A stretch of DNA of 64,000 nt from Anaerolineae bacterium (GCA_034428955.1 DAOUGZ010000316.1:285-64284), one strand, 5' to 3'; numbered from the stretch's first letter, positions 26,683 through 52,192 are shown. Made by a program: numbers and translations. Notes: a model not told the origin generated them from the letters alone.

Positions 26683-26747
26683 GCAGCTGCTCGATGGCCT
26701 GCCCGCTCAGCAATGCGCAAAGAGAGCAACGGAAAGGAGTCACCCAG

Positions 26748-28163: not shown

Positions 28164-28188
28164 CGGTTCCGCTCCCCGTCTGAAACGG

Positions 28189-28236: not shown

Positions 28237-28344
28237 CGCTGTGCACATATTGGCCATGCAAGGACTGTTGGCCGCATGCAGCACGGCCGTTTACATGGAG
28301 ACAATGATCCGCATATACAATACACGGGAAGGGATGTGACCGTT

Positions 28345-29259: not shown

Positions 29260-29275
29260 AAGGAAGCGTGAGTAG

Positions 29276-30112: not shown

Positions 30113-30210
30113 CCTGCGTCCTGCATATTGGCGGGCCGAGGCACGTATTTATCGCATGAAGCTTGTCCTTTTGACACTGACATAATGTCTCATCAAAGGA
30201 GAGGAAGCGT

Positions 30211-32785: not shown

Positions 32786-32895
32786 CTTGCTGGGCTTATT
32801 TCACTTCCGCGCCATAGCGCGGCCTCCCGAGATACTTCCCTGGATTGGCGGAGGAGCGCCGCACCCGAATCCTCCGAGGAAAGGAATGGTTTACT

Positions 32896-34269: not shown

Positions 34270-34342
34270 GAAACACACGGTTCGTCCGGGCTTATCCATC
34301 GGAATAAGCCCGGACGAACCGTCCTTTGAGAGGAGCAAACCC

Positions 34343-36874: not shown

Positions 36875-36906
36875 GCTCCCTCCAGTCTTGGTCCGGCTGC
36901 CGGCGC

Positions 36907-37731
36907 TCAGCGTCCGGCCAGGATCTCGGCCGCGCGCCGGAAACCGCACTCGGCGCTGGTGAACACGGGTACGCCAAACTCGGCAGGCGAGTCGGGGTAC
37001 GAAAAGGCGAACACAGCCATGGAAAGCTGGGCCAGGACGACGCAGCCAATCTCCTCGCGGCTGAGGCAGGCGCGGATTCCCTCAGCCAGGGCCCGGTTAT
37101 GGCCCTGCACGTCGCCCACGGCCAGCCGCTGCCACGCCTCTTCGACGGTCAGGCCGCTAAAGGTGACCTCGCAGCCCATCTCCGCCGCCGCCTCTTGCAG
37201 GAGCGCCTGGGTGCTGGCCACCGTGGGGCCGTGGGTGGCGACGACGAGCACGCGCCCGCCGTGGGCCACCGCCCGCTCCATCATCGGCCGGTCGATCTGC
37301 AGGACGGGCACGCCATAGGGCGAGAGGGCTTGCTCCACCTGGGCGTAAGCCCGGTTCATCGTCGAGCAGGTAATGAGCACCGCGTCGACCTGGGCCAACT
37401 CGACCAGGTCCTTGGCATAGCGCACAAAGGCATCGATATTAGGCTGGGGCGGGCAGGGCAGCCCCTGCTCATGCGCGGCCATAAAGTTGAGCTGCACCGC
37501 CTCGTTGCCCACGTTGACCAGGTGCACCCCAGGCAGGTACAGCCGCCCGAAATAGTTGGCCCAAAGGGTGATCCACGACGAGCCGTTCAGCAGGCCCAGC
37601 CGTTTGCCCCGTAGGGGCAGGGCGACCTCGCTCCCACATTCCACGGGTTCGGGCCCCAGGTGCGCCACGCCGGTCACCCGTAGATAGCTGGCGAAAAGAT
37701 CGAAAGGGTTGATATCGGCCAAGTCCGTCAC
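36907..37731 (-). CDS. Asp/Glu/hydantoin racemase superfamily protein (putative isomerase/racemase/decarboxylase)
   Basis: Two-Cys architecture (ITCSTM ... second domain) reminiscent of maleate isomerase/AMDase-like folds. Assignment is tentative. Confidence 0.5.
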   Translation of the reverse strand: MTDLADINPFDLFASYLRVTGVAHLGPEPVECGSEVALPLRGKRLGLLNGSSWITLWANYFGRLYLPGVHLVNVGNEAVQLNFMAAHEQGLPCPPQPNIDAFVRYAKDLVELAQVDAVLITCSTMNRAYAQVEQALSPYGVPVLQIDRPMMERAVAHGGRVLVVATHGPTVASTQALLQEAAAEMGCEVTFSGLTVEEAWQRLAVGDVQGHNRALAEGIRACLSREEIGCVVLAQLSMAVFAFSYPDSPAEFGVPVFTSAECGFRRAAEILAGR

Positions 37732-38672
37732 CGCAGTGCCTCCCGTGCCTCGATGGCCTCGCGCGCCGCGGCGGCAATGTCTTCAGGCCGCAGGCGATAC
37801 TCGGCCAGCAACTCGGCGACTCCGCCGCTCTCGATGAAGCGATCCTGCACGCCGATGCGCCGCAGCACGGCCGGCGCCCGCTCGCCGAGGACCTCGGCCA
37901 CGGCGCTGCCCAACCCACCGATGACCGAGGCGTTCTCTGCCGTGACCACGGCGCCCGTCTTGCGGGCCGACTCAGCGATCAGGTCCTCATCAATGGGCTT
38001 GACCGAGCCGTAGTGCAACACATCCGCCCAAATGCCGTCGCGGGCCAAAAGGTCCGCCGCCTGCAAGCAAAAGCCCGTCATCATGCCGGTGCCGATGAGG
38101 GTCACGTCGGCCCCCTCGCGCAGCCGGTGGCCCCGCCCCCAGGCGAACTGATGGCCCTCGCCGAAAAGATCGGGCAGGGTGTAGCGGGTGACGCGGAAAT
38201 AGACCGGCCCCTCGGTCAGCACCGCCGCGCGCATCATGGAGCGCAGTTCCCAGTTGTCCCCCGGATCGGCCACGCGCATGTGGGGCATACCACGCATAAT
38301 GGCCATATCGGTGACGGCATTGTGCGAAGCGCCGGCCCGGCTGGTGGGGATGCCCACATAAGAGCCGGGGATCTTGACGTTCAGCTTGGGGTAGGCGATG
38401 CTGATCGACACCTGGTCCAACGCTCGCTTGGCCGCGAACACGGCAAAGGTGCAGGGGAAGGGAATGTACCCCTGCGTGGCCAGCCCGGCGGCGATGCCGA
38501 ACATGTTCTGCTCGGCGATGCCGCATTGGATAAAGCGAGCCGGAAAGGCCTGCTTAAAGTATACGGCCTTGCTGGAGGTGTGCAAATCCGCGTCGAGCAC
38601 GATAATATTGGGGAACTCGTGCCCCAGCTCGAGCAGGGTTTTGCCGAACACGTCGCGCATTTCCTCGGGCAT
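37728..38672 (-). CDS. Transketolase, C-terminal (pyrimidine-binding plus C-terminal domain) subunit of a split transketolase
   Basis: FIQCGIAEQNMFGIAAGLA and GASHNAVTDMA motifs. ATG 38672 after GGAGAATGAGAGG. Confidence 0.9.
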   Translation of the reverse strand: MPEEMRDVFGKTLLELGHEFPNIIVLDADLHTSSKAVYFKQAFPARFIQCGIAEQNMFGIAAGLATQGYIPFPCTFAVFAAKRALDQVSISIAYPKLNVKIPGSYVGIPTSRAGASHNAVTDMAIMRGMPHMRVADPGDNWELRSMMRAAVLTEGPVYFRVTRYTLPDLFGEGHQFAWGRGHRLREGADVTLIGTGMMTGFCLQAADLLARDGIWADVLHYGSVKPIDEDLIAESARKTGAVVTAENASVIGGLGSAVAEVLGERAPAVLRRIGVQDRFIESGGVAELLAEYRLRPEDIAAAAREAIEAREALR

Positions 38673-38682
38673 GGTCAGCCTC

Positions 38683-39594
38683 TCATTCTCCACCGTAGAA
38701 CTTTTCCTTGGCCACCGGGTCGTCGAGCTTGCTGTAGCCTTCCGCCGGCCGGCCATAGTTGCGAGCCAGGCGGCGCAGCATGGCATCGGCATCCTCCGGG
38801 TCCGGCGCCTGGGTGTGCCACTTGTAGTTGAACTCGGTCTGGCTCAGGCCCTTGCCCTTGACGGTGTGGGCGATGATCGCCACGGGGGCGCCGTGGACAC
38901 GCACGTGACGCGCCGCGTGCAGCGTCTGCAGCAGGGCTTCGATGTCGTGCCCGTCAACCTCCAGCACCTCCCAGCCAAAGGCCCGCCACTTGTCGGCAAA
39001 GGGCTCCAGGGTCATCTCCTCCCAGATAAAGCCCTTGGCCATGACCTTGTTATAGTCCACGATGGCGATGAGGTTATCCAGGTGATAGTGGGCCGCCGAC
39101 ATGGCCGCCTCCCACACCTGGCCCTCGTCGCACTCGCCGTCGCCCAGCAGGCAGTAGACGCGGTTGTAGGGCATCTCGCGGAAGCGAAAGCCCAGGGCCA
39201 TGCCCACGCTGATGGAGAGCCCCTGGCCCAGCGGCCCGCCGGAAGACTCGAGCCCGGGCGTGCGGGTCATGTCGGTGTGCCCCTCCAGGCGCCCGCCCAG
39301 CTCGCAGTAGGTATAGACCTCCTCCAGCGGGAAAAAGCCGCGCAGGGCCAGGGCGGCATAGAGGGCCGGCGAGGCGTGAGCCTTGGAGAGGACAAAGCGG
39401 TCCCGCTCCTCCCAGCGGGGGTTCTGCGGGTCCACCTGCAACTCGCGGAAGTAGAGGCAGGCCAAAAGCTCGGCAATGGAAAAGGCGCCGCCGACATGCC
39501 CCCAGCGGCCGTAGGTGATCATCTCCAGGCTCAACCGGCGGATCCGGTAGGCGATTTCCTCCAGCCGGTCAATCTCTTGGGGTTTGAGGCGCAT
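38683..39594 (-). CDS. Transketolase, N-terminal (TPP-binding) subunit of a split transketolase
   Basis: GHVGGAFS, CLLGDGECDEGQVWEAA, and TPP-binding GDG...N motifs. Confidence 0.9.
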   Translation of the reverse strand: MRLKPQEIDRLEEIAYRIRRLSLEMITYGRWGHVGGAFSIAELLACLYFRELQVDPQNPRWEERDRFVLSKAHASPALYAALALRGFFPLEEVYTYCELGGRLEGHTDMTRTPGLESSGGPLGQGLSISVGMALGFRFREMPYNRVYCLLGDGECDEGQVWEAAMSAAHYHLDNLIAIVDYNKVMAKGFIWEEMTLEPFADKWRAFGWEVLEVDGHDIEALLQTLHAARHVRVHGAPVAIIAHTVKGKGLSQTEFNYKWHTQAPDPEDADAMLRRLARNYGRPAEGYSKLDDPVAKEKFYGGE

Positions 39595-39629: not shown

Positions 39630-40380
39630 TCAAGGGCGAGGCGCACACGCCGCGGCAAACTCGGCACCGATGACGGTGTATCCCACCGTCTCCTCGAACC
39701 AGGCGACCCAGCGGGCGGTATTCTCCAGATTCGCCACGCTCTCCGGCGTCTCCCCGGCGAGGGTGCCGTCGCGCAGCCAGATGACGGTATAGTTGCGATA
39801 GAGGGCGTCGAGGGCGGTGGCGGCCAGGCAGACGTTGGCCCACAGCCCGGCACAGACCAGATTGCGCACCCCCAGGTTGCGCAGGGCCGTGTCCAGCCGG
39901 GTGTCGAAAAAGCCGCTGTAGACGTGCTTGCGAATGTAGGGCTCGCCCTCGCGCGGCGCCAGGCGGGGGGATATCTTGAGCGGCCCGGCAGGCCCGCCGT
40001 GGTATTCACGCGAGTCCACGCCGCCCTCGGCGAATGTGCGGTTAAAGGTGTCGGGCACACCATCGAGGCTCCAGCTACGGGCGAAATGGGCGCCAAAGGC
40101 CGAGCGTTCGAGCGCGATGCGCGGCGCGCTGTTCATGGCATAGAGCACCGGCAGGCCCACGGCGCGGGCCGCGTCGAGGGCCAGGGCGATGCGCCCCTCC
40201 ATGCGCTGCAGGTGAGGCACGAGGGGGTCCGCCGGGTCGCCCCAGTCGCCGCGTTTTTGGTCGTTGTAGTAGACGTCTACGAGGAGCAACCCCGTCTCCG
40301 AACGCGACAGGAGCAGGTCCTCGTGCCGCTCCTCTCCCGAGTGGGTGTAGCGGCCGCATAATGCGAGGGCTTTGCTCATC
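39630..40380 (-). CDS. Isochorismatase-family cysteine hydrolase
   Basis: LLLVDVYYND, VYSGFFDTRLDTALRNLGVRNLVCAGLWANVCL. ATG overlaps the upstream stop (TGATG). The tracked ORF has a spurious 210-codon N-terminal extension. Confidence 0.8.
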
Positions 40381-41515
40381 ACGCCTCCATCTTGCCCCAG
40401 ACCCGGCGTACGGTTTCGAGGTAGTACATATAGTTGTCGAGCGGGACGTCCGGCGGCACGCGATGATCGCAAAAGCCGATGTAGCCGCCCTCCTCCACCA
40501 AAGGCGCCAGGCGATAGACCTCTTGCTCGATCTCGCGCTTGCCCTGGGCCAGGATGTGCTTGTCGAACCCGCCCAGCATGAGCAGGTCCCGGCCGTACTC
40601 CTGGCGGTAGCGAACCGGGTCCGCGCCCCAGGTGCCGACCTCGACCGGGAAGAGGCCGTTGATGCCCGCTTCGAGCCACAGAGGGATGAGGGCGTCGATC
40701 TGGCCGTCGCAATCGATCCAGATGACCTCGACGCCATGCTTGCGGACCAGGTCGCTGATGCGGCGATAGTGGGGCACGAGATACCGCTTGACGTGCTGAG
40801 GGCTCAGAAGCGGCCCGCTGCTGTAGCACATGTCTTCCCACAGGGCGCAGGCGTCGAACTGACCACCCGTCTCCAGCACCCGGCCAAAGACGCCGATGAT
40901 GCAGTCGGCGACGGTGGTCACCATCTCTTCGAACCAGGCCGGGTCGTCGTACACGACCATCGAGAGCTTCTCGACGCCCATCCAGTTGCGCAGCCAGCCA
41001 TAGAGGCTGGCACAATACCGCCCACAGGGCAGGGCGATGACCTCATTGCGCTCGGGGTCGGCCCACAATCGGGTGCGCTCTTCCCAGTCTGGGGGGTAGC
41101 GGTCGGGGTGTGCCGGGTCCAGGCGGGGTTTGTAGTGCTTGCGCCAACTGTCGCGGTCCACCAGTTGGTGGCCGATGGGCATGGGGATAGTGCTGCCCAG
41201 CTTGCTGCGCAGCACGCGCACGCCATCCCACTGCTGGACGAGTTCGCGCTCGCCGCAATCCTCCAGCACGACCTCTTCAAAGGCCGGCATGAGGCCCACC
41301 TCAACGCCCGTCGCAGCCATGACCGCATCCAGGCCATAGTCCATGCCAAAGAAGGCGTCGCTGTTGGTCTTGTCGATGTGCGGCGGCAGGCCCTGCCCAT
41401 GCCAAACGGAGAGGGTCTCGCGCCAAAAGCCGAAATCGCAGATGGGCGCGCGGTCGCGCGGTTGGTAGCGCATGGTGGCCAGAAAACGCTCTCGGTCGGT
41501 CATCGGCCCGATCAT
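40379..41515 (-). CDS. Uroporphyrinogen decarboxylase (URO-D)-like family protein, paralog 1
   Basis: URO-D/MtaA-like TIM-barrel signature across the full length; 4-nt overlap with GH2. Confidence 0.85.
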   Translation of the reverse strand: MIGPMTDRERFLATMRYQPRDRAPICDFGFWRETLSVWHGQGLPPHIDKTNSDAFFGMDYGLDAVMAATGVEVGLMPAFEEVVLEDCGERELVQQWDGVRVLRSKLGSTIPMPIGHQLVDRDSWRKHYKPRLDPAHPDRYPPDWEERTRLWADPERNEVIALPCGRYCASLYGWLRNWMGVEKLSMVVYDDPAWFEEMVTTVADCIIGVFGRVLETGGQFDACALWEDMCYSSGPLLSPQHVKRYLVPHYRRISDLVRKHGVEVIWIDCDGQIDALIPLWLEAGINGLFPVEVGTWGADPVRYRQEYGRDLLMLGGFDKHILAQGKREIEQEVYRLAPLVEEGGYIGFCDHRVPPDVPLDNYMYYLETVRRVWGKMEA

Positions 41516-44337
41516 GGCAGCTCGCCTCCTTCGCCCGCGGCCAGGCGTACCAGGTTGCGCGCCAGGGTGGCGGCGATGGGGTTGGCCTGGGCCTGCTCAA
41601 AGATGCGGTACTGGCAAAAGATCAGCCGGCCCCGGCCACAGGGGATGGCCTCGATGTCGCTGTACCAGAGGATGGCGGAGGGCTCGCGCCGGGTCTGGGT
41701 GTTGCGCAGGGAACCGGCCAGGACCTCGCCGCCCAGCTCGGTCATGACGTACCAGGGCAGCACGTCCACATAGGCCTCGCCACCAAGCCCCTTCGGCAGC
41801 CCGGCAAAGAGGCCGGACTGGGGTTGCCAGTGGTAGCAGCCCATCCAATTGCCGATGCCGTAATGGAGCTGGAGCGGCACCCCCCGCTCCTGGAGGACGC
41901 GCCGGGCGAGTTCGTCGCGCGGATGCAGCGCGCCGATGATGCCGGTGCGCCCTTGCTCTACCTCGCCGAGCAGGCGCTGCCAGTCGCCCTCGCTGAGGGT
42001 CGCCGGCAGGGCAGCCAGCAACACGGGGCGCTCCCCAGGCGCGCTCGCCGCCCCGTCCGCCCAAGCCGCCGGAACGCTTCCGAGGCACTCCACACTCGCC
42101 GCCGCCCGGCTCAGGTCCGGCGGCACGAGCGCCAGGATGGCCTCAACGGACTCGGCCAGTACCTCCCCATCCCTGAGCAGGCGCGCGGATACCCGCCACT
42201 CCCCAGGCTCTTGGCCGGTCTCGACGGCGACGGCGCCCATCTCGCGGACGCCGGTGCCCGCCGGCGCGGCATAGCTCGTCTCGCGCTCGGCCCCCGAAGG
42301 GCTCTGCACGGTCACCCGTACCTCTTCCGCCCCCTGCAGCGGCTCGCGGCTGACCAGGGTCAGGGCCACCTCGATACGCTCGCCGCAAGCGGCCGCAGGC
42401 TTGGCCGCCTTGAGGATCAGGCACTGGGGCCGCTGGAGCCGCTTGAGCACCTCGTAGACCGGCTTGGGGTTGCGCCAGTGGTCGAGGAGGCCGGCGTGGA
42501 ACTCCCAGGCCACGTCATTGAGCTGGGTGACGATATACCCCGACACCCGTGGGTTGGCCAGGAGCGCCTCGACCTGGCGCTTGAGGCCGGCGGCCTGCAG
42601 TGCCTGCGAGGCGCGGACCAGCTCGCGCACGGAGGGGAAAACGCGGTCCAGGCGGCGCGCGGCAAAGCCCTGCTGCAGGCTGTCGCGGAAGGCCATCATC
42701 TCGCGGGCGTCGCGCAGGTCTTGGCGCCCCTGAAAGCCGGCAACGACCTGGTCCAGGTCGGCCATGCCGCCGCAGCCCAGCTCGGAGACAAAGACCTGGC
42801 CCCGGTAAGATGCCAGCCCTTGGGCCCACTTGTCCAGCATCGCCGGCGAGCCGAAATCGAGGGCCGCCATGTCTACCGGGGGCGGGCTGATGCCCAGGGT
42901 GCGCATCCACTCATACGCCTCTGAGGGGATGGGGGCGCCGATGTAGACGTGCAGGTCCTGGATCGGTTGGCGCTGCATCTCGCGGGAGGGGATAACGGTA
43001 GTGCGATCGGCCCAGCCGTAATCCTGATCGATGGCCATCGTGCCGCCCGAGTTGTCCAGCACCACACGCGTGGGGTCCAGGGCGCGGGCGAGGCGGGTGA
43101 GTTCGTCGCTGTTGAGGGCGTTGGCCGCCCGGTTCTCGTTGTTGATGCCCCAGATGACGACGGAGGGATGGTTGCGGTCGCGTTCGATCATCGCCCGCAG
43201 CTCGCGCCGGCCATGATCCAGCAGGCGCGGGCTGTCTTTGATCCAGGCCAGGCAGCTCTCGGCGTAGACCAGCATGCCCAGCTCATCGGCCAGGTCCAGG
43301 TAGCCCGGCGGCGCCGGCCGGATGTGAGCGCGGATCAGGTTGAACCCGGCCTCCTTGGCCAGGGTGATCTCGCGCACCATCATCTCGCGCGTCGGCGGAG
43401 TGACGATGGTGATTGGATAGTTAGGCTGCAGAAGCAGGCCCCGCAGCAGGATGGGCTCGCCGTTGAGGAAGAACCGGCCGTCGCGCACGGTGAAATCGCG
43501 CAGGCCAAAGCGCACCGTCCGGCTATCCACCTCGGCGCCGCCTCGCCGCAGCGCCAAGCGCAGGGTGTAGAGGTGCGGGTTGCGGCAATCCCAGAGCAGC
43601 GGGCGCGGCAGGGGGATGCGATAGGAGAAGGAAGACTCCCCCGGTGGCAGCACGACCTGAGAAGACTCTGTGGCGGCCAGGTCGCCGGAAGGCCCCTTCA
43701 CCTCCAGCCGCAGCACGGCACCTTGGCTCTCCTGGTCATAGTTCTCAAGGGCCGCCTCCACCCGCACCATCTCTTGGGCCGGGTCGGGCTCGACGGTCAC
43801 CGCTGTGCAAAAGGTGGTGGGCAAGGCCTCCAGGTAGACCTCTCCCCAGAGGCCGCCGTGGGTGTAATACCAGCTCTGCTTGGAGGCCGGCGACTGCTGC
43901 AGGACCATGCCGTCCACGTCCCAGGTCTTGGCCAGGCTCGCCACGCGCACTACCAGCTCGCTCTCCGCGCCGGGCCGGATGTGCGGCGTGACATCAAAGC
44001 CAAAGGGGGTGTAGGCACCCTCGTGGCTGCCCACATAGGCGCCATTGAGCCAAGCCTGGGTGCGATAGCTGGCGCCGCGAAAGTGCAGGCGCACCACGCG
44101 CCCCTGCCAATCCGCAGGAACGGTAAAGACGCGCCGGTAAAAGCCCACGCCCTCGGCATCGGGATGGGTAACGTTCCACAGAGCGGGCACCTGCACGCGC
44201 TCGGCGCGCGCCTCGGGCCAGTGGCCAAGCGCCCAGCCCGCGCGAATGCCCTCGCACGCCGGGTCGAAGGCCAGTTGCCACAGGCCGGCCAACTCCAGCC
44301 GTGGCCTGAAGCTGGGAAGGTCTATCGGGTGAGCCAT
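41512..44337 (-). CDS. Glycoside hydrolase family 2 (beta-galactosidase/beta-glucuronidase/beta-mannosidase-like) with an extended C-terminal region
   Basis: GH2 sugar-binding (WLNGAYVGSHEGAYTPFGFDVT), Ig-like and TIM-barrel (NHPSVVIWGINNEN) domains. ATG 44337 after GGAGAG. Confidence 0.85.
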   Translation of the reverse strand: MAHPIDLPSFRPRLELAGLWQLAFDPACEGIRAGWALGHWPEARAERVQVPALWNVTHPDAEGVGFYRRVFTVPADWQGRVVRLHFRGASYRTQAWLNGAYVGSHEGAYTPFGFDVTPHIRPGAESELVVRVASLAKTWDVDGMVLQQSPASKQSWYYTHGGLWGEVYLEALPTTFCTAVTVEPDPAQEMVRVEAALENYDQESQGAVLRLEVKGPSGDLAATESSQVVLPPGESSFSYRIPLPRPLLWDCRNPHLYTLRLALRRGGAEVDSRTVRFGLRDFTVRDGRFFLNGEPILLRGLLLQPNYPITIVTPPTREMMVREITLAKEAGFNLIRAHIRPAPPGYLDLADELGMLVYAESCLAWIKDSPRLLDHGRRELRAMIERDRNHPSVVIWGINNENRAANALNSDELTRLARALDPTRVVLDNSGGTMAIDQDYGWADRTTVIPSREMQRQPIQDLHVYIGAPIPSEAYEWMRTLGISPPPVDMAALDFGSPAMLDKWAQGLASYRGQVFVSELGCGGMADLDQVVAGFQGRQDLRDAREMMAFRDSLQQGFAARRLDRVFPSVRELVRASQALQAAGLKRQVEALLANPRVSGYIVTQLNDVAWEFHAGLLDHWRNPKPVYEVLKRLQRPQCLILKAAKPAAACGERIEVALTLVSREPLQGAEEVRVTVQSPSGAERETSYAAPAGTGVREMGAVAVETGQEPGEWRVSARLLRDGEVLAESVEAILALVPPDLSRAAASVECLGSVPAAWADGAASAPGERPVLLAALPATLSEGDWQRLLGEVEQGRTGIIGALHPRDELARRVLQERGVPLQLHYGIGNWMGCYHWQPQSGLFAGLPKGLGGEAYVDVLPWYVMTELGGEVLAGSLRNTQTRREPSAILWYSDIEAIPCGRGRLIFCQYRIFEQAQANPIAATLARNLVRLAAGEGGELP

Positions 44338-44347
44338 GTCTCTCCTA

Positions 44348-45802
44348 TCACTGCTCAAAGGGATGCTTCCTCTCGATTCGGAAGGTGAAGGCGTGTTCGC
44401 AGGGTTTTTTGCCGGGGGTGCGGATGACGAGGCCATCCGGCGCGAACGTCCAGGGCAGTTCCTCGTCAACGCCAAGCATCCTCACCGAGCTAATCTCCGA
44501 CGGGTACAGCTCCTGGGCCGGCGTCCGGACGACCAGCGCATCGCCCGGCCAGCCCAGGCAAATAGCATAGAGCGTGTCATCTCTAGCGGTAAAGCGGATG
44601 TCTTCCGCGGTGTAGCGGATGTCCTGGTCCTCACAGAACGGCCCGCTCTTGACCATCCGGCTGGGTCCCTCGCCATAGACCATCCAGGGGGTCGTGCCGT
44701 AGATGGCCTCGCCATTGACCTCGAGCCAGCGGCCGATGGCCAAAAGGAGGTCCCGGGCCGGCTCTGGGATCTCGCCGTTGGGTTTGGGCCCCACGTTGAG
44801 GAGCATGTAGCCGTTCTTGCTCACATTGTCTACCAGGTAATGCACCAGCACGCTCGCCGGCTTGTAGGCCGTGTCTTTCAGGTAGCTCCACCCACGCCCG
44901 TCGTCTACCGTCGTGTCGGTGATCCAGTCTTGGTAGGTCAGGTCCGGGAAGCGCCCCAGCTCGAGGTCGACGACGGCACAGCCGGGAACCAGAGTGTGCC
45001 ACTTGTAGGTCACGACCACTTCCTGGCCCCACTGTGCGGCTCTGTTGTAGTAGTAGGCCAGGAGCTCTTTTTTGTAATGCTCCTGGATGTGCTCAATGCC
45101 ATGGTCGAACCAGAGCATGTCCGGACGGTACTTGTCGATGACCTCCTGCGCTTTGCCCAGCCAGAGGTCGAGGAACGCCTTGCTGGGCCGGTCTTGCAGT
45201 GCCCAGAGATCGTCCCTTGAATGGGTGAGGTACATGCCTGCTGCCCACTCTCGATTGTGCAGCTCACCGTAAAGCCCGGCGTAGCGCGGGTCGGAGGTAT
45301 CGAACTCGTGCCGCCAGTGGGGGTAGTACCACCAGTTCTCGGCGTGGTGCAGGGCCACCATAAAGCGCAAGCCCGCCCGGCGCACGGCTCGCTCCAGCTC
45401 GCCGACGACGTCTCGCTTCGGCCCCATGCGCGCGGCGTTCCAGGCGTTGAGTTGGCTATTCCACATAGCAAAGCCGTCGTGATGCTCGCCCACAGGGCCG
45501 GCAAAGCGGGCGCCGGCCCGCTTGAACAGATCGGCCCACTCGTCGGGGTCGAACCGCTCGGCCGTGAACATGGGGATAAAATCCTTGTAGCCGAACTCGG
45601 AGACGGGACCATAGGTCTCGACGTGATGCTTGTGCTGTGGCGAGCCCTCACGATACATGAAGTAGGGGTACCAGGTGGCATTAGGCCCGCACGCCGGAAC
45701 CGAGTAAATCCCCCAGTGGGTATAGATGCCGAATTTGGCGTCTCTGAACCACTGGGGCGTCTGGTGCGCTCTGAGCGAGTTCCAGGATGGCTTGTAGGTC
45801 AA
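44348..45802 (-). CDS. Alpha-L-fucosidase, glycoside hydrolase family 29
   Basis: QWFRDAKFGIYTHWGIYSVP, HHDGFAMWNS and YHAENWWYYPHW motifs typical of GH29. TTG start after GGAGGA. Confidence 0.9.
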   Translation of the reverse strand: MTYKPSWNSLRAHQTPQWFRDAKFGIYTHWGIYSVPACGPNATWYPYFMYREGSPQHKHHVETYGPVSEFGYKDFIPMFTAERFDPDEWADLFKRAGARFAGPVGEHHDGFAMWNSQLNAWNAARMGPKRDVVGELERAVRRAGLRFMVALHHAENWWYYPHWRHEFDTSDPRYAGLYGELHNREWAAGMYLTHSRDDLWALQDRPSKAFLDLWLGKAQEVIDKYRPDMLWFDHGIEHIQEHYKKELLAYYYNRAAQWGQEVVVTYKWHTLVPGCAVVDLELGRFPDLTYQDWITDTTVDDGRGWSYLKDTAYKPASVLVHYLVDNVSKNGYMLLNVGPKPNGEIPEPARDLLLAIGRWLEVNGEAIYGTTPWMVYGEGPSRMVKSGPFCEDQDIRYTAEDIRFTARDDTLYAICLGWPGDALVVRTPAQELYPSEISSVRMLGVDEELPWTFAPDGLVIRTPGKKPCEHAFTFRIERKHPFEQ

Positions 45803-45811
45803 GGTCTTTGT

Positions 45812-45880
45812 CCTCCGCCTTCGGAGGTTTAGGGGGTAAACTGTCGCCGCCCGCGGGCGGCGACAGTTTACCCCCTAAAC
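45812..45880. repeat. Short hairpin (CCTCCG cctt CGGAGG) followed by a 54-bp perfect palindrome (27-bp arms, no loop) inside the operon between the Gfo/Idh/MocA and GH29 genes
   Basis: GTTTAGGGGGTAAACTGTCGCCGCCCG | CGGGCGGCGACAGTTTACCCCCTAAAC at 45827-45880, confirmed base by base. Confidence 0.7.
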
Positions 45881-45912
45881 CCCTATCCCAGCCTGGGCCG
45901 GGTAGCGCATAC

Positions 45913-46920
45913 TCATGCATCCAAGGGAATGTCCACCGGGGCGCCAAGCTCGGCGGAGCGAGCGGCCGCCAGGGCCAGGCGCAGCGAGCGATAGCCCTCT
46001 TCGATGGGGGCGACGGTGGGGCGGTCGCCGCGGATGGCGGCCAGGAGGTCGAGCGTCTCGGCCAGGTAGACGTCTTCCTCGCTGGCGATGCGCTGCGGGG
46101 GGCTGTCGCCGGCGGTATCGTAGAGCGTGCCCACATTCGCATCAGCGAGATCGGCGGTGAGGCCGGCCAGGCAGACGCGGACGTCGTTATCCCAACGGTT
46201 CGGGATGGCACCGTTGGTCGCGGCCACGACAGCCAGGCCGCCGGAGGCAAATTGGATGACCGTGCCGCTGGCATCCTCGACGGTATAGCCGGGAACGTCC
46301 CGGTGAAAGAGGTTGCCCTGCGCCGAATAGACCCGAACCGGCTCGCCCAGGAGGAAGCGAGTCAGGTCCAGCAGGTGGATGACCTGCTCCACCAGTTGGC
46401 CGCCGCTCTTGCTGCGGTCGCGCCACCAGGGCCGGTGCAGCGCATTGCAAAAGTAGCGGGCGGTGATAAAGCCCACCGGGTTCGTTCCCAGTTCGCGCAT
46501 GTATTGCCGCACCCGGCGAACGGCCTCCCCGTGGCGCCACATAAAGCCCACCTGGCTCTTCACGCCGCTCCGGCGGGTCGCCTCGACCATGCCGGCGGCC
46601 AGTTCCAGGGTCAGCGCGATCGGCTTTTCGATGAGGTAATGGACCCCATGCCGGCAGGCCAGCTCGACCTCGTTGCCGTGGGCAAAGGGCGGCAGGCAGA
46701 TGTAGACCAGGTCCAGGTCCAGCTCTTCGAACATGCGCCGGCTATCGGTATAGACCTGCGCCCGGCCGGCGGCGAACGCTTCGTTAAAGGCCTCGGCCTG
46801 GCCGCGCACCTCGTCGCAAAAGCCGACGAGGTCGATGCACTCCAGCGCCGCCAGGTGGGCGGCATGTTGCTTGCGGGCAAAGTGCCCGCAGCCGATCAGT
46901 CCGGTTCGCAAGGGTCTCAT
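45913..46920 (-). CDS. Gfo/Idh/MocA family NAD(P)-dependent oxidoreductase
   Basis: GLIGCGHFARKQH Rossmann N-terminus and an EKP catalytic motif. Confidence 0.9.
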   Translation of the reverse strand: MRPLRTGLIGCGHFARKQHAAHLAALECIDLVGFCDEVRGQAEAFNEAFAAGRAQVYTDSRRMFEELDLDLVYICLPPFAHGNEVELACRHGVHYLIEKPIALTLELAAGMVEATRRSGVKSQVGFMWRHGEAVRRVRQYMRELGTNPVGFITARYFCNALHRPWWRDRSKSGGQLVEQVIHLLDLTRFLLGEPVRVYSAQGNLFHRDVPGYTVEDASGTVIQFASGGLAVVAATNGAIPNRWDNDVRVCLAGLTADLADANVGTLYDTAGDSPPQRIASEEDVYLAETLDLLAAIRGDRPTVAPIEEGYRSLRLALAAARSAELGAPVDIPLDA

Positions 46921-46930
46921 GGCTTCTACC

Positions 46931-47980
46931 TCATTCCGTATAGGTCAGGACCATCTTGACCCGGTCTCCAGGCTGCAGGTCGAGCAGGGCATAGGCCTCG
47001 GCGGCGCGCTCGAAGGGGACACGCGCCCCGATCAGCGGCCGGACCTGTAGCCTGCCCTGTTCGAGGAGGCGAACCGCCGTGTGCTCGAGGCGAAGCAGGT
47101 CCCACATCGGCTGGCAGCGATGCGAGCACTCCCAAACGGGCATGCTGGAGCGCAGAGTCACCCGGTTGTGGTGCCACTCCGCCGCCAGATCGAGCCGGCC
47201 CTTCTGGTCGCCGTAAAAGCTGACGGTGACGACGAGCCCCTCTTTATGCACCGCACGCACCGCCTGCTGCAGGGCGGTGTATACCCCCGAGATTTCCAGC
47301 GCCACGTCGACGCCCTCGCCGGCCGTGGCCTCTTTGATCGTGAGGCCCGCGTCGTCCTCGGCGGGGTTCACCGTCAGGTCCGCGCCCAGTTGCCGGGCCA
47401 GGGCCAGGCGCCCGGGGACGGGGTCAACGGCCGCGATCCACTCGGCGCCGTTGAGCCGGGCCATCTGCAGCGCCAGCATGCCGATCGCCCCCAAGCCAAA
47501 GACGGCCACCCGGTCTCCGAGCTTGATGGCCGCATCGTGAATGCCGCCCAGGGCGAAACGGGCCGGGTCGGTGAAGAGCATCGTCTCCTCGTCGGCCTGG
47601 TTCGCGACGGGGTAGAGGTTCGCCTCGGGCATGAGCACCGTCTGGCGATGCTTCCATTCCCCGTGCACGCGGTCACCAGGCTTGAAGCGGCGCACGTCGG
47701 GCCCCACACGAGTGACGACACCCGCCGCCCACGAGCCCATCTGGTGCGGGAAGTACGGCTTGATGCACTCATCCTCTCGCGGAGGCCTGAAGAGGCGGAG
47801 GGTGGGGTCCCACAGGCGATCGCCAAAGGGCACAACGCCCCGGTAGGTGTTTAGTTCCGTGCCGTGCTTGATGCCGCTCACGGTCGTGCGAATGTGGACC
47901 TCGTCGCCGCTGGGCTCCCGGTCCTCATACTCCTGGTAACCGATGGTCTTGGGCGCTGTCACGACAAGTTCGAGAGGCAT
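46931..47980 (-). CDS. Medium-chain dehydrogenase/reductase (zinc-type alcohol/polyol dehydrogenase-like)
   Basis: GroES-like N-domain and a GLGAIG Rossmann motif. Confidence 0.8.
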   Translation of the reverse strand: MPLELVVTAPKTIGYQEYEDREPSGDEVHIRTTVSGIKHGTELNTYRGVVPFGDRLWDPTLRLFRPPREDECIKPYFPHQMGSWAAGVVTRVGPDVRRFKPGDRVHGEWKHRQTVLMPEANLYPVANQADEETMLFTDPARFALGGIHDAAIKLGDRVAVFGLGAIGMLALQMARLNGAEWIAAVDPVPGRLALARQLGADLTVNPAEDDAGLTIKEATAGEGVDVALEISGVYTALQQAVRAVHKEGLVVTVSFYGDQKGRLDLAAEWHHNRVTLRSSMPVWECSHRCQPMWDLLRLEHTAVRLLEQGRLQVRPLIGARVPFERAAEAYALLDLQPGDRVKMVLTYTE

Positions 47981-48101
47981 GGTTGCTCCTTCTGATTATT
48001 GCATTGGCTCTGGCGCTGGGCCCCACGGATATTTGCCGGCATCGTGGCACCACCCGCGACGGGCCTTGCCCGCCAGAGTCTCAGGCACGATGGGTTATCC
48101 A

Positions 48102-49103
48102 TCATTCAGCGGAGAGTGCTGCTCTTCGCCAGGGGTCTGCTTGCCGGAATGCCTCCAGCATGATGCCCTTCCTCTCCAGGGCCACGCCAATCGCAGTCCC
48201 ATCGCCATAGTCGGAGAGGATAAAGCCCCCCGCAGGAACGGCCCACTGCTGCAGCAAGAGCCGGGCTTCCTCGCGTATCTCGTCGTCGCCTGCGAACGGC
48301 AGCGTATGCTGAATGTCGCAGAGGGACTCGAAGCAGATGCGCCCCCGAAACCGCCGGCCCATCTCCTCGATGCCGAGCACGCGGGGCTGCTGCAGGTTGA
48401 TGACGTCCAGGCCGATTTCGATGAGGCTATCCAGGATGGCATCGACCTTGCCGCAGGAGTGCATCCACACATGCCAGCCCTGCCGGTGGATCGCGTCAAA
48501 GATGCGCTTGTAGCGTGGCTTGAAGAACTCGTCCCAGAGGGCCGGGCTGACGAAAAGCGCCTGCTCGCTGCCCCAATCATCCGTGAACGAGAAACCGTGG
48601 ATGCGGCGCCCAAACCGGCGCCCGATGTTCTCGATAATGCCCAGGTCGAACTCGACAATACGGTCGGCGAGCGCCTCGGCGGCCTCCCGCTCCAGACGCA
48701 GATCGACAAGCGTGTTCTCAAAGCCGCGCAGAGCATGCATGCGCTCAAAGAGCAGCATAAAAATGCCCGTCAGCACATACTGGCCGTCCGAGCCGGCAAA
48801 GCGCTCTTCCATGCCCCGGTAGAACGCCGGCGAGTCGGCATCGGGCCAGCGGAAATGGGCCATGTCTTGCCGGTCGGCCAGCGGATGGCCTTTCACCTGC
48901 CCCATGTTGCCCATCTCGGAGCGCACCCACAGGCAGCCCCATTCATCGACCGTGCGCCGCAAGCGCTTGTCGCCCGTGCCTGTCTGGTTCCAGGCCACGG
49001 TGTGGGTATCGCTCAGCCCCAGCGCCTCAAAGCGCAGAGGCAACCTATCCGGCACGCCGAACTCGATAGCGCGGCGCACAACCTCCAGGCCAGACATCGC
49101 CAT
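48102..49103 (-). CDS. URO-D-like family protein, paralog 2
   Basis: URO-D-like fold (...FSFTDDWGSEQALFVSP..., HSCGKV...). Confidence 0.85.
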   Translation of the reverse strand: MAMSGLEVVRRAIEFGVPDRLPLRFEALGLSDTHTVAWNQTGTGDKRLRRTVDEWGCLWVRSEMGNMGQVKGHPLADRQDMAHFRWPDADSPAFYRGMEERFAGSDGQYVLTGIFMLLFERMHALRGFENTLVDLRLEREAAEALADRIVEFDLGIIENIGRRFGRRIHGFSFTDDWGSEQALFVSPALWDEFFKPRYKRIFDAIHRQGWHVWMHSCGKVDAILDSLIEIGLDVINLQQPRVLGIEEMGRRFRGRICFESLCDIQHTLPFAGDDEIREEARLLLQQWAVPAGGFILSDYGDGTAIGVALERKGIMLEAFRQADPWRRAALSAE

Positions 49104-49114
49104 CAGGCACCCCT

Positions 49115-50269
49115 CTACTTTTCAACGGAGTGAAATGCCTCATAGACCCGCCACAGGGGCTCGACGCGCGCCGGCAGCGGCAGATGGGCCGGGAGCGGCC
49201 GGGCGCTTTGGTGGAGCGCCGCGTCGATCAGGGCGACGGCGTTCTCCGGCGGGACGTCCGGCAGGATGGCCTTGGCGGGGCTAAAGACGTAGCCGCCGCC
49301 GCGCCCCAGGTAGCGCAGGCAGGCCTCGGCCTCGCAGCGCACCTCCTCGGCAGTCCCGCGCGGCAGCGTATGCTGCGAGCTGACGCCGCCGTTCAGGCAA
49401 AGCGCGTGGCCGTAGCGACGCTTGATCTCCAGCATATCCATCGCTTCCGGCTGCAGCGGGTTGAGGATCTGGACGCCGATATCGATCAGGTCGGGCACGA
49501 TCTCGGTGACATCCCCGCAGGTGTGGACCATGACCACCATGCCTTTAGCCCGCACCCGCTCAAAAATGCGCCCGGCCCTGGGCTTGATGAGCTTGCGCCA
49601 GCGCTCCGGCCCCATGAGCAGGCCGCGCTGGGCACCCCAGTCGTCACCAAAGCGAAACCCGTCAAAGGGGTAGCCGGCGATGCGCTCGACAAGGCGCAGG
49701 TGCAGCTCCGTCAGAGCCTCCAACAGCTCCTCGGCAAAGACGGGATGCAGGACCATATCGGTCAGGAAGGCTTCCATCCCGCGCAAGGCCCAGCAGCGGT
49801 CAAAGAGGCCGTGCGCGTCGCCACACAGAACAAAGCGGTCCCCGTGTTCCGCCAGGAACTCGCCGGCGCCGTGGAAGTAGCTCTCCTCACACAGGTCGGG
49901 GAACTCGTACCCCCGCAACGAGGGCTCTTTTAGCGGGGAATCCTCCAGGTGCGGCGCATGGCCTGCCCGCCAGGTGCAGCCAAAGGCATCCACATAGCGG
50001 TCCGGGCCAAGCGGGCGCCGCGCCGCCTCGATGTGGAAGAAGGGCAGGTGGTTGACGATGCGCCCGGCCAGGTCGCGCCCCTCGGGGAGTTGAGTGAGCT
50101 TGTCCAGAGCGGCATCGTCGATGCGGATATCGTAGGGGACAATGTCCGACTCCTGCCCGGCCAGCGCCCTCAGCACACGCTCCTTGGGCGTCAGCCGCGC
50201 CGGCAGCCCATCCCGCTTGCCGCCCAACCGCTCGCCTCTGTTGCAGGGGATAGGTCTTTCTTCGCTCAC
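49115..50269 (-). CDS. URO-D-like family protein, paralog 3
   Basis: URO-D-like fold (FRFGDDWGAQRGLLMGP, HTCGDV). GTG start overlaps the permease stop (GTGA). The tracked ORF has a spurious 170-codon extension that runs antisense through the permease gene. Confidence 0.8.
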   Translation of the reverse strand: MSEERPIPCNRGERLGGKRDGLPARLTPKERVLRALAGQESDIVPYDIRIDDAALDKLTQLPEGRDLAGRIVNHLPFFHIEAARRPLGPDRYVDAFGCTWRAGHAPHLEDSPLKEPSLRGYEFPDLCEESYFHGAGEFLAEHGDRFVLCGDAHGLFDRCWALRGMEAFLTDMVLHPVFAEELLEALTELHLRLVERIAGYPFDGFRFGDDWGAQRGLLMGPERWRKLIKPRAGRIFERVRAKGMVVMVHTCGDVTEIVPDLIDIGVQILNPLQPEAMDMLEIKRRYGHALCLNGGVSSQHTLPRGTAEEVRCEAEACLRYLGRGGGYVFSPAKAILPDVPPENAVALIDAALHQSARPLPAHLPLPARVEPLWRVYEAFHSVEK

Positions 50270-51144
50270 CCCTTCAACGCCCCTGCCGTCATGCCCTTGA
50301 TCACATAGCGCTGCAGGAAGGCAAAAGCCAGCACCACCGGCACAATCGTAATGGCCATGCCGGCGGCCACGCCGGGCTCGTTGGAGGTAAAGTGGCCCTC
50401 CAACAGGCTGATGCCCACCGGCAGCGTGCGCGATTCCGTCGTGCCCGTCAGGACCAGGGCCAGGATGTACTCGCTCCAGGCGGAGAGAAAGTGAAAAGTG
50501 GCCATCGTCGCCAGGGCGGGCTGGGAGAGGGGCACAATGATGCGCCAGAAGACACTCCACATCCCCGCTCCGTCCATGATGGCCGCTTCCTCCAGCTCTT
50601 TCGGGATCGTCTCCATAAAGGCGCGCAGGAAAAAGACATTCCACGGGATGCCGACCGCGGCGTAGACAAGGGCCAGGCCGCCCAGGTTGTTGTAGAGGCC
50701 GATGCGACGGGTAAAGATGGCCAGGGGCACCAGGAGGATGGAGTGAGGGATCAAAAAGCCAAACAGGATATAGCCCCAAACCAACCCCTTGAGCCGGAAC
50801 TCGAAGCGCGCCAGGGCAAAGGCCGCCGTCGCGGCCAGGAGCAGCACCAAGATGAGGGAGCCGATAGTCAGCACGACGCTATTCAGGAAGTAGAGGCCCA
50901 TCTTGGCATGCACCCAGGCTTCCTGATAGTTGGACCACTTCCAGTGCGCCGGCAGGCCAAAGGGGTCGGCGTACAGCTCACGCGTGTACTTGAGGGAGGT
51001 GAGCAGTACCCAAACCAGCGGATACACACAGACGAGGGCCCACGCGATCAGCCCTGCGTGCAGCGCACCCTGCACAAGGCGGTGAATCCAGCGGTCGCGT
51101 CGTTGCTGCCTGGCGATATCGGCCTGGGAGCTGATTGCTGTCAT
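50266..51144 (-). CDS. ABC sugar transporter permease (MalG-like)
   Basis: EAA motif KELEEAAIMDGAGMWSVFWRIIVP. Start trimmed to the ATG just downstream of the preceding permease stop. Confidence 0.85.
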   Translation of the reverse strand: MTAISSQADIARQQRRDRWIHRLVQGALHAGLIAWALVCVYPLVWVLLTSLKYTRELYADPFGLPAHWKWSNYQEAWVHAKMGLYFLNSVVLTIGSLILVLLLAATAAFALARFEFRLKGLVWGYILFGFLIPHSILLVPLAIFTRRIGLYNNLGGLALVYAAVGIPWNVFFLRAFMETIPKELEEAAIMDGAGMWSVFWRIIVPLSQPALATMATFHFLSAWSEYILALVLTGTTESRTLPVGISLLEGHFTSNEPGVAAGMAITIVPVVLAFAFLQRYVIKGMTAGALKG

Positions 51145-51160
51145 CGCTTTCCCCATTTCC

Positions 51161-52081
51161 TCAAGCGTCCAGCGCCGCCTCATGCCGCCGGCCATAACGC
51201 CACACCAGCGTGACGGCGATGATGCCCAACAAGAAACTCAGCGTGGCGACTGCACTGCCATAGCCCCACGTCTTTTTCTGCCACAGCAGATACAGAGAGT
51301 AGGAGATCAAAGTCTCACTCAGGTGGATCGGGCCGCCCTTGGTCATCAGCAGAGGATAGATAAAGGCGCCCAGCGCGCCCTGCAGCGTCAGGACCATACA
51401 GGAGACGTACACGCCGCGGATGTTGGGCAACGTGACGTGCAGCAACTGCTGCCAGGCATTTGCCCCATCGATGGCGGCGGCCTCATAGTACTCCTCGGGT
51501 ATGCCCACCAAAGCCGCCAAAAAGATCACCATATAGAAGCCGATATGCTGCCACGAAGAGGGAAAGCTCGTAGCCCACTGTACGTACCCATCGCCGCTCA
51601 GCCATGGGCGCACCCAGGCGCCCCGCCCTGTCAGGCGCAGGAGGCTGTTGAGCACGCCATACTCGTTGCCGGAAAGAACAAAGCGCCACATCAGGGCCAT
51701 GGTAGTGGCCGGCAAAATCACCGGGATGTAGAACAAAAAGCGGTAGATGTTCGCCCCGCGACGGAGCCGGTTGAGCACAAACGCCAGCAGGAGAGCGACG
51801 GGCAGCATAAAGCCCCAATCCAGAGAGAGGCGGCGAGCGTTATTGACCAGCGCCAGGGGCACGATCGGATCGTTCAGCATCTGGGAAAAGTTGGCCAGGC
51901 CGACAAAGGGGGCGGCGCTGATAGGCCCACCTTCCCAATCCAGAACACTGTAATAGAGCGAGAGCAAGCTGGGGTAGAGCATCAGGGCGGTGTAGATGCC
52001 CACCGCCGGGAGCAGGAAGAGCGCAATGCCCACCGGATTCCCATACCACGAACGGCCCCTGTTTCTACGATTTCCCATCAT
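51161..52081 (-). CDS. ABC sugar transporter permease (MalF-like)
   Basis: Six TM helices and EAA YEAAAIDGANAWQQLLHVTLP. Start near the ATGATG at 52081. Confidence 0.85.
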   Translation of the reverse strand: MMGNRRNRGRSWYGNPVGIALFLLPAVGIYTALMLYPSLLSLYYSVLDWEGGPISAAPFVGLANFSQMLNDPIVPLALVNNARRLSLDWGFMLPVALLLAFVLNRLRRGANIYRFLFYIPVILPATTMALMWRFVLSGNEYGVLNSLLRLTGRGAWVRPWLSGDGYVQWATSFPSSWQHIGFYMVIFLAALVGIPEEYYEAAAIDGANAWQQLLHVTLPNIRGVYVSCMVLTLQGALGAFIYPLLMTKGGPIHLSETLISYSLYLLWQKKTWGYGSAVATLSFLLGIIAVTLVWRYGRRHEAALDA

Positions 52082-52192
52082 CACCCCCCGTTCCGCCGGC
52101 CATGACCCTGGGTAGGGGTTTGGCGGGTTGGTTGGCCTGGCCGCCCTGCGGGCGGCCAGGCCAACCAACCCGCCAAACCCTCAGATCAACAA

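Follow-up and report, generated by a model that had tools for sequence, protein, structure and literature searches.

In a 64,000-nucleotide stretch of an Anaerolineae bacterium genome (GCA_034428955.1, DAOUGZ010000316.1:285-64284; the whole stretch is called the window below), three separately conserved genes of the uroporphyrinogen decarboxylase (URO-D) superfamily lie within a conserved glycan-utilisation gene set. One of them, URO-D #1, is linked in other genomes, both statistically and physically, to a cobalamin methyl-transfer module, whereas URO-D #2 and URO-D #3 are not. We tentatively read URO-D #1 as a substrate:corrinoid methyltransferase of the MT I type that would act on a methylated sugar, and URO-D #2 and #3 as B12-independent enzymes that would also act on sugars, a joint reading that we regard as plausible but somewhat short of probable. 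The fold, family assignment, gene order, genomic comparisons and residue conservation are shown; everything said below of catalysis is inferred. The three open reading frames (ORFs) lie where a model's earlier annotation of the DNA alone (the sequence-only reading) had placed them, and all exceed the gathering score of the Pfam URO-D family PF01208 (23.9 bits):

49115-50269, minus strand: URO-D #3, 87.6 bits against PF01208; likely start at TTG 50227, giving 370 aa
48102-49103, minus strand: URO-D #2, 39.0 bits against PF01208; 11 nt downstream of URO-D #3
40379-41515, minus strand: URO-D #1, 56.4 bits against PF01208

The corrinoid link of URO-D #1 comes from a pattern-limited scan of 185,579 species genomes (one genome per species), which returned 416 relatives; the best 80 loci were kept and their ORFs searched with a panel of window and corrinoid-module proteins. 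A corrinoid protein, the activase RACo, a PF02574 homocysteine methyltransferase or a DUF1638 protein is encoded in 28 of these 80 loci, mostly in an adjacent position, around orthologues 58-78% identical to URO-D #1, so the lack of a local corrinoid gene, which the sequence-only reading had held against a methyltransferase role, loses its force for this gene. The corrinoid protein lies no more than 1.5 kb from the orthologue in 19 loci, and a module gene was found within 3 kb in 19 of the 50 loci that had at least 3 kb on both flanks. By comparison, a metagenome scan for URO-D #2 (441 relatives, 80 loci) gave no corrinoid-module gene at any locus (28/80 versus 0/80; Fisher p = 4e-10). Unbiased clustering of the neighbours of URO-D #1 orthologues recovered the same leading partners as the panel search, and the motif DxHxxG is present in 23 of 25 corrinoid-protein matches, the remaining two being partial. 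The recurring gene order is URO-D #1 orthologue, corrinoid protein, a divergent URO-D-like gene ('unk359'), RACo, PF02574 homocysteine methyltransferase, DUF1638 and a further URO-D gene. This order was verified by Pfam in L006 (L-numbers denote related loci from other genomes, compared with the window), where PF02607+PF02310, PF02574, RACo/RamA and PF07796 genes stand together beside an orthologue 67% identical to URO-D #1. Core genes of the split-methionine-synthase type are also found together in L039, L044, L068 and L085, and RACo directly follows the URO-D #1 orthologue in four Planctomycetota loci.

Several of these loci form what we call hub clusters (L006 4082-17436; L039, L044, L048, L068 and L085), in which a core of corrinoid protein, PF02574 methyltransferase, RACo and DUF1638 is accompanied by a CobW GTPase and by as many as five distinct URO-D-like genes; a PF00809 pterin module was not seen in these clusters. 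The hub member unk359 is strongly divergent and scores just 17.5 bits against Pfam URO-D.

Orthologues of URO-D #1 also occur in sugar operons. Loci L011 and L010 reproduce the layout of the window; L058 carries GH2, isochorismatase, ATP-binding cassette (ABC) transport genes, URO-D #3, an alcohol dehydrogenase (ADH), a GFO/IDH/MocA oxidoreductase (GFO) and URO-D #1; L045 runs through LacI, binding protein, permease, URO-D #1, permease, MalK, GH38, a hub-type URO-D, a GH63-like gene, ADH and GFO; and L012 combines permeases, LarA, GH39, URO-D #1, two further URO-D genes, a split transketolase and a sugar-isomerase-like barrel. With L015 and L026, these loci (L045, L012, L058 and L011) place the orthologues beside sugar ABC, GH38, GH39, GH2, ADH or GFO genes in varied arrangements, and the recurrence of the same gene set around orthologues in several independent lineages bears out the tie to sugar catabolism that had been proposed from the window alone. 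The two contexts meet in L047, where a run on the plus strand (7669-20963) holds GntR, GH43, the URO-D #1 orthologue, a GH59-like gene, an unk359-type URO-D, a corrinoid protein, CE4, GH4, a URO-D gene, GH2 and GFO. With its three URO-D-like genes, this run ties B12 methyl transfer to glycan catabolism physically, and more clearly than any other locus we have seen.

In a neighbour-joining tree, corrinoid-context and sugar-context orthologues of URO-D #1 are interleaved, and the 26 corrinoid-context and 54 sugar-context sequences share 13 invariant residues that are candidates for the active site; the interleaved tree and the identical invariant residues together argue for one chemistry in both contexts. 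Among the residues invariant across all 80 orthologues are D268, D270, E292, D350 and H351; C269 is kept in 77 of the 80, and C349 varies. At the positions equivalent to the zinc site of MtaA, URO-D #1 presents D268-C269-D270 and C349-D350-H351.

For URO-D #2, the neighbours are very variable and the gene often stands alone: across its loci we counted about 10 with sugar ABC permeases, eight with sulfatases, two with GH29 and two with GH2, and unbiased neighbour clustering gave no conserved partner. In the L090 operon, which also has GH13 and sugar-acid genes, it lies behind an unk359-type URO-D. The contexts of URO-D #3 are more uniform. In all eight that we examined (the window, L001, L002, L170, L171, L173, L011 and L058) a GH2 gene of about 800-990 aa lies nearby, most include an ABC importer, ADH and GFO, and five carry the trio of split transketolase and racemase-like genes, with a corrinoid gene in none of the eight. 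In L173, where orthologues of URO-D #2 and #3 are again neighbours, the genes run in the order GH2, URO-D #2 orthologue (68% identical), URO-D #3 orthologue (58%), GH172, GH29 and ADH. Those URO-D genes of corrinoid loci that match URO-D #3 best are distant relatives (130 bits or less). The families of URO-D #2 and #3 never stand beside corrinoid genes in these sets; most likely they act without B12.

The sequence-only reading had called the three genes paralogous, which holds at the level of the superfamily but not in the sense of recent duplication, given identities of 21-33%. URO-D #3 and #2 share 33% identity (E 1e-42), #3 and #1 share 25% over 209 residues (E 2e-12), and #2 and #1 share 21% (E 1e-5), the last pair reaching 92% probability in a profile-profile comparison. 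Each gene is instead the local copy of its own conserved, anciently diverged orthologous group. Members of the URO-D #1 family are 58-86% identical, and the best 120 public matches 65-99% identical; the URO-D #2 family, leaving the window's own protein aside, is 70-85% identical; and relatives of URO-D #3 are 50-78% identical, followed by a wider shell at 40-47%. The carriers are mostly Chloroflexota (Anaerolineae, Caldilineaceae), Planctomycetota, Armatimonadota and Verrucomicrobiota, and the window is nearest (77-78%) to the Anaerolineae metagenome-assembled genomes of L010 and L011; L018 is assigned to Litorilinea aerophila. No fourth URO-D copy was found in the window by tblastn with several URO-D-like protein queries.

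All three proteins belong to the URO-D TIM-barrel fold: each exceeds the PF01208 threshold, and AlphaFold2 (AF2) models align to HemE structures with template modelling (TM) scores of 0.5-0.67. None of them is HemE, as had already been argued from the sequence. The HemE equivalog model TIGR01464 (cut-off 302.95 bits) gives 18.6 bits for URO-D #1, 17.0 for #3 and no match for #2, and the motif RQAGR, which we take to be the N-terminal substrate-binding motif of HemE, is absent from all three proteins. Together with the genomic context, this rules out a haem role for any of the three. No haem-pathway gene was detected in the window, again in agreement with the sequence-only reading; a UbiA-family gene at 58465-59454 resembles MenA, and its radical-SAM neighbour is not haem-specific.

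MtaA and CmuA models score 22-71 bits against cut-offs of 235-400, the best values for NCBIfam TIGR01463 and PRK06252 (cut-offs 235-244) being 21.8 bits (URO-D #1), 27.7 (#2) and 70.8 (#3); strictly speaking, the three are thus not MtaA. MtaA (4ay7) is the top solved structure in Foldseek searches with the models of URO-D #3 (mean predicted local distance difference test score, pLDDT, 92.2; E 9e-16) and URO-D #1 (pLDDT 89.6; E 8e-11), at TM 0.58-0.71, with HemE structures ranking after it for both. By sequence, URO-D #3 aligns to 4ay7 with an E-value of 1e-9, and its family profile matches MtaA (E 2e-9), the MT I enzyme CdmB (9rui, E 1.8e-4) and HemE (E 6e-3). The zinc ligands of Methanosarcina mazei MtaA, which we take to be His240 and Cys242 (His-x-Cys) and the distal Cys319, were located in the URO-D proteins by alignment to 4ay7. 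These ligands, named by the sequence-only reading as a means of telling an MtaA-type enzyme from HemE, are there in part: the full set is found in none of the three, and the His-x-Cys portion occurs in URO-D #2 and in the window's own URO-D #3. The latter has H249-T-C251 where the consensus of its family is H-S-D, with Asp at 251; the third ligand is replaced throughout the family by an invariant Lys333, and H249 and E275 are likewise invariant. In the URO-D #2 family, H211, H215, C217, C262, D263 and D298 are invariant and H215-S-C217 forms the motif, with Asp or Gly at the distal Cys position; judged from these residues, the His-x-Cys and Cys/Asp set of URO-D #2 resembles a zinc site.

In the window the three genes belong to a run of 16 genes on the minus strand (54806 to 36062, 18.7 kb) that is headed by a LacI regulator and has short gaps or overlaps between genes. 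GH2, GH29, an ABC importer and LacI confirm the placement among carbohydrate-active enzyme (CAZyme) genes noted earlier. From head to end, the other 13 genes are:

53799-54806, minus strand: LacI-family regulator at the cluster head (Pfam LacI and Peripla_BP_3)
52193-53629, minus strand: sugar ABC solute-binding protein (Pfam SBP_bac_1 and SBP_bac_8)
51161-52168, minus strand: ABC permease 1 (Pfam BPD_transp_1)
50266-51195, minus strand: ABC permease 2 (Pfam BPD_transp_1)
46931-47980, minus strand: Zn-dependent dehydrogenase of the medium-chain dehydrogenase/reductase (MDR) type (Pfam ADH_zinc_N and ADH_N), under all NCBIfam cut-offs
45913-46920, minus strand: GFO/IDH/MocA oxidoreductase (Pfam); top NCBIfam match iolG-like at 111 bits, under cut-off
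44348-45802, minus strand: GH29 alpha-L-fucosidase (Pfam Alpha_L_fucos, 330 bits)
41512-44475, minus strand: GH2 glycosidase, 987 aa (Pfam GH2 N-terminal, central and C-terminal domains)
39633-40379, minus strand: isochorismatase-family hydrolase; NCBIfam RutB-like at 70 bits, under cut-off
38683-39594, minus strand: split transketolase, N-terminal subunit (Pfam Transketolase_N; NCBIfam)
37728-38792, minus strand: split transketolase, C-terminal subunit (Pfam Transket_pyr and Transketolase_C)
36907-37731, minus strand: Asp/Glu/hydantoin-racemase-family protein (Pfam Asp_Glu_race)
36062-36949, minus strand: metallo-beta-lactamase (MBL)-fold hydrolase, weakly UlaG-like, the final gene of the run (Pfam Lactamase_B_2)

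The sequence-only reading had URO-D #1 as an in-frame fusion to GH2. In fact, the stop of GH2 and the start of URO-D #1 share a 4-nt ATGA in different frames, so that the two genes are translationally coupled and not fused; at its other end, the URO-D #1 stop overlaps the start of the isochorismatase-family gene as TGATG. URO-D #2 and #3 are adjacent, as reported, with the start of #2 lying 11 nt past #3. The GTGA coupling of URO-D #3 to the permease fared less well: GTG 50269 does overlap the permease stop, but the likely start is TTG 50227, which leaves the coupling doubtful. The deposited protein (P0001, 370 aa) begins at that TTG, which AGAGG precedes by 7 nt. In the long form, alignment with homologues starts no earlier than about residue 24, and the AF2 model shows residues 1-19 as disordered (pLDDT <50). 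In the operon genes for which it was computed, URO-D #1 and #2 among them, G+C content at third codon positions is uniformly high (0.81-0.88), and the genes appear native and coding.

The top PDB matches of the window GH2 are mixed, including a beta-glucuronidase (7xyr), a beta-galactofuranosidase (9j6n) and also beta-galactosidase. The MBL-fold hydrolase scores 49.6 bits, under cut-off, against the NCBIfam L-ascorbate-6-phosphate lactonase, a PDB search with the racemase-like protein gave no informative relative, and the isochorismatase-family hydrolase gene is also present in L058, L001 and L170. The split transketolase is always followed by the Asp/Glu-racemase-family gene (window 37728-39594; L001, L002, L170 and L171), and the conserved gene set has no visible sugar kinase, which is odd for a transketolase step. 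As listed (TTG 44475), the GH2 ORF overlaps the end of GH29 by 128 nt (44348-44475), and the true GH2 start is therefore probably further downstream; the starts of the transketolase C-terminal subunit and of the MBL gene are likewise uncertain. Upstream of lacI lies a sigma-70-like promoter (54893-54865, minus strand; 11 of 12 positions matching, with an extended -10 TG), directly followed by the palindrome CGGTTTTATAACCG (54859-54846, minus strand), a putative site that may be the autoregulatory operator of lacI. Terminator-like sites in the operon are no more frequent than in shuffled sequence.

Under the joint reading, the LacI-controlled operon would bring in a glycan fragment through the ABC importer and cleave it with GH2 and GH29, and the two dehydrogenases, the hydrolases and the split transketolase would process the released sugars. 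In URO-D #1, a metal at the putative site formed by the invariant Asp268, Asp270, Glu292, Asp350 and His351 would polarise the methyl ether of a released sugar, the cob(I)alamin of a separate corrinoid protein would accept the methyl group in a putative second step, and the methyl would then be handed to homocysteine or folate. The corrinoid protein, a RACo activase and the acceptor methyltransferase would be encoded outside the window in this genome. An aliphatic ether is a poor leaving group. The Asp/Asp/Glu/Asp/His cluster could hold an activating metal; the zinc-dependent methanol:cob(I)alamin reaction, as it is cited in PMC13222342, offers an analogy for such activation. URO-D #2 and #3 would work on the same sugar stream without B12, candidate reactions being alkyl transfer to a thiol and the decarboxylation or isomerisation of an oxidised sugar. 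The sequence-only reading had proposed a decarboxylase-like family acting on sugars. The sugar context stands; decarboxylation is just one of several candidate reactions, and for URO-D #2 and #3 alone.

Several observations weigh against a corrinoid-dependent role for URO-D #1 in this operon. As the sequence-only reading had observed, the window holds no corrinoid or methyltransferase partner: tblastn (E ≤ 1e-2) with the corrinoid protein, RACo, PF02574 methyltransferase, DUF1638 and CobW of a related locus found no such gene, B12-binding protein included, in these 64 kb of a 72,463-bp contig, about 8 kb of which lies outside the window, and Pfam scans of nearly all long window ORFs gave none of the corrinoid-module families. 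The window's own clade (L010-L014) has no corrinoid protein in the available flanks either. L047 is the sole locus among the 28 corrinoid loci with CAZymes detectable by our limited panel, so the two contexts of URO-D #1 are mostly separate. Neither the URO-D #1 profile nor that of #2 matches a methyltransferase structure significantly, and the two sequences have no significant match to any characterised methyltransferase. A housekeeping role could likewise account for the high conservation of URO-D #1 (58-86% identity). We found no precedent in the literature for cobalamin-dependent cleavage of an aliphatic sugar methyl ether, the only carbohydrate demethylase found there being a cytochrome P450 (PMC6292453). 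Nor did we find anything relevant on glycan loci that contain URO-D-like genes or on sugar demethylation that depends on a corrinoid. Going further than the joint reading, the URO-D #1 family could be the first known to transfer methyl groups from sugar methyl ethers to a corrinoid, independently of O2, with a hub that passes the methyl to homocysteine and with URO-D #2, #3 and other URO-D-like groups as further spokes for other methylated sugars. Glycan degraders among the Chloroflexota, Planctomycetota, Armatimonadota and Verrucomicrobiota would in this way harvest the methyl groups of polysaccharides for methionine and C1 metabolism. We consider this extended version unlikely.

A first alternative, in line with the sequence-only reading, is that all three proteins act directly on sugars without B12, whether cofactor-independent or metal-dependent; in one version they would decarboxylate a keto-uronic or keto-aldonic acid produced by GFO and ADH. 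The window without a detected corrinoid gene, the absence of corrinoid genes from all 80 URO-D #2 loci and all eight URO-D #3 contexts, and the loss of the MtaA zinc cysteines in URO-D #3 are all consistent with this, as are the conserved residues of URO-D #2 and #3, which are mostly polar, as expected of a sugar pocket, and the constant presence of dehydrogenases and a lactonase-like gene as neighbours. It leaves the corrinoid association of URO-D #1 unexplained, however, the HemE-type catalytic signature is absent, and HemE is structurally no closer than the methyltransferases and, for URO-D #3, more distant in sequence. We know of no sugar decarboxylase in the URO-D superfamily, which counts against the decarboxylase version. 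The superfamily lists in PMC10418091 and PMC13222342 likewise contain none. On balance we judge a B12-free role for all three to be rather improbable.

Conversely, all three could be MT I-type enzymes, each for a different methylated sugar, that supply a single common corrinoid hub whose genes lie in another part of the genome. The hub clusters hold several URO-D-like groups (URO-D #1, unk359 and types of 321, 413 and 450 aa), and sugar operons, too, contain genes of the hub type: the 321-aa type lies beside GH38 and GH63-like genes in L045, and the unk359 type lies between a GH13 gene and the URO-D #2 orthologue in L090 and beside URO-D #1 in L013 and L014. The match of the URO-D #3 profile to both MtaA and CdmB points the same way, and MT I enzymes can do without zinc (PMC13222342). 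Yet in no observed case did a corrinoid protein or activase lie less than 10 kb from an orthologue of URO-D #2 or #3, and URO-D #2 mostly stands by itself, its neighbours varying from locus to locus. A common hub for all three is, in our judgement, rather improbable as well.

A third alternative would confine URO-D #1 to housekeeping, as part of a split B12-dependent methionine synthase, for example a methyl-folate-binding part that replaces the pterin domain, with its placement in a sugar operon irrelevant. The module beside URO-D #1 orthologues matches the core of a split MetH, no PF00809 pterin module was seen in L006, sequence conservation across phyla is very high and most corrinoid-context loci are without CAZymes. 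Set against these are the translational coupling of URO-D #1 to GH2 in the window, the occurrence of its orthologues in at least six differently arranged sugar operons, the position of the L047 corrinoid protein amid glycosidase genes, and the small number of relatives (just 416 in 185,579 species genomes, in a pattern-limited scan), and we think such a role quite unlikely. That one of the three is the organism's true HemE, an idea that only the name of the Pfam family and the annotation 'uroporphyrinogen decarboxylase' in databases suggest, is next to impossible given TIGR01464 scores far under the cut-off, the missing RQAGR, the lack of haem genes nearby and the sugar-operon setting.

Elsewhere in the window, a second, convergent cluster of sugar type occupies 26658-36013 on the plus strand, and a group of three genes lies on the minus strand before it:

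22065-23249, minus strand: D-serine-dehydratase-like protein (alanine-racemase N domain)
23197-23979, minus strand: TauE/SafE exporter
24214-25695, minus strand: DUF1537-type four-carbon acid-sugar kinase (SBD_N and NBD_C)
26658-28163, plus strand: ABC binding protein of the second cluster
29276-30112, plus strand: permease of the second cluster
30128-32785, plus strand: 885-aa protein of the second cluster, with a weak alpha-D-galacturonidase-like match only
32845-34269, plus strand: FAD_oxidored protein of the second cluster
34343-36013, plus strand: thiamine pyrophosphate (TPP) enzyme of the second cluster, glyoxylate-carboligase-like (699 bits, cut-off 791)

The trio at 22065-25695 looks like a small module for acid sugars or hydroxy-amino acids. 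G+C content is 0.56-0.58 at 26001-30000 and about 0.64 elsewhere; this low-G+C segment covers the two ABC genes of the second cluster (binding protein and permease) and may be a later acquisition. A sulfoquinovose pathway that would include the split transketolase, with the TPP enzyme as sulfoacetaldehyde acetyltransferase and with TauE (23197-23979), was considered and dropped because the TPP enzyme is glyoxylate-carboligase/acetolactate-synthase-like. A second, shorter GH2 gene (582 aa; 59567-61315, plus strand) lies outside the operon, just before pheS.

Methyl ethers such as those of 4-O-methyl-glucuronic acid, 2-O-methyl-fucose and 6-O-methyl-galactose block normal sugar catabolism. If the proposed role of URO-D #1 is true, it would explain how anaerobic or microaerobic glycan degraders handle methylated sugars, and would tie polysaccharide degradation to methionine, one-carbon (C1) metabolism and the environmental demand for B12. 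It would also provide a function for thousands of genes that now go by the name 'uroporphyrinogen decarboxylase', which in metagenomes makes the haem pathway be predicted too often. Regardless of function, the three genes represent three separate conserved families for which annotation as HemE should be avoided.

The closest known systems include the UroD-type MT I enzymes, the UroD superfamily comprising O-, S- and halide-demethylating members, zinc-containing or not (PMC13222342, PMC10418091). The O-demethylases MtvB, OdmB, VdmB and MtoB and the chloromethane enzyme CdmB share the URO-D TIM-barrel with the window proteins, and their systems combine MT I, corrinoid protein, a further methyltransferase and a RACo-type activase in an order also seen around URO-D #1 orthologues; the order of MT I, corrinoid protein and MT II in cdmBCA (PMC13222342) parallels that of the module. 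Many paralogues per genome and an optional zinc are further points of likeness (PMC13222342). In contrast, sequence similarity is remote (E 2e-4 for the URO-D #3 profile against CdmB, and none for URO-D #1), the window lacks a nearby corrinoid protein, and the known enzymes act on aryl methyl ethers or halomethanes in anaerobes, whereas the URO-D genes described here lie in glycan operons of Chloroflexota and allied glycan degraders. The MT II enzymes MtaA, MtbA and CmuA offer the closest solved structure (4ay7) and share His-x-Cys with the window's URO-D #3 and #2, but family scores (22-64 bits) are far under the cut-off of 235, the distal zinc Cys is replaced by Lys (#3) or by Asp or Gly (#2), URO-D #1 has Asp-Cys-Asp and Cys-Asp-His, and there is no coenzyme M metabolism here. 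HemE has the overall fold and Pfam family in common with the window proteins and differs in equivalog score, RQAGR and haem context.

The split methionine synthase and MtgBCDE systems of Phaeobacter and Ruegeria, in which a single corrinoid protein serves substrate modules that can be swapped and that dock on it (PMC5764234, PMC12478193), share their core with the loci of URO-D #1 orthologues (PF02607+PF02310, PF02574, a RACo/RamA-like activase and DUF1638). Their substrate modules are PF06253 (MtgB) or PF00809 (pterin), whereas those here would be URO-D-like, and the module is not in the window. A cytochrome P450 of marine Bacteroidetes that demethylates 6-O-methyl-D-galactose (PMC6292453) addresses the same metabolic problem, methyl ethers that block sugar catabolism, with an unrelated protein; its reaction is oxidative and O2-dependent, whereas the route proposed for URO-D #1 would be an O2-independent transfer that keeps the methyl group. 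The superfamily and the logic of the corrinoid module are thus known, and what is new is the sugar context, the three uncharacterised families and the combination of corrinoid and glycosidase genes in L047.

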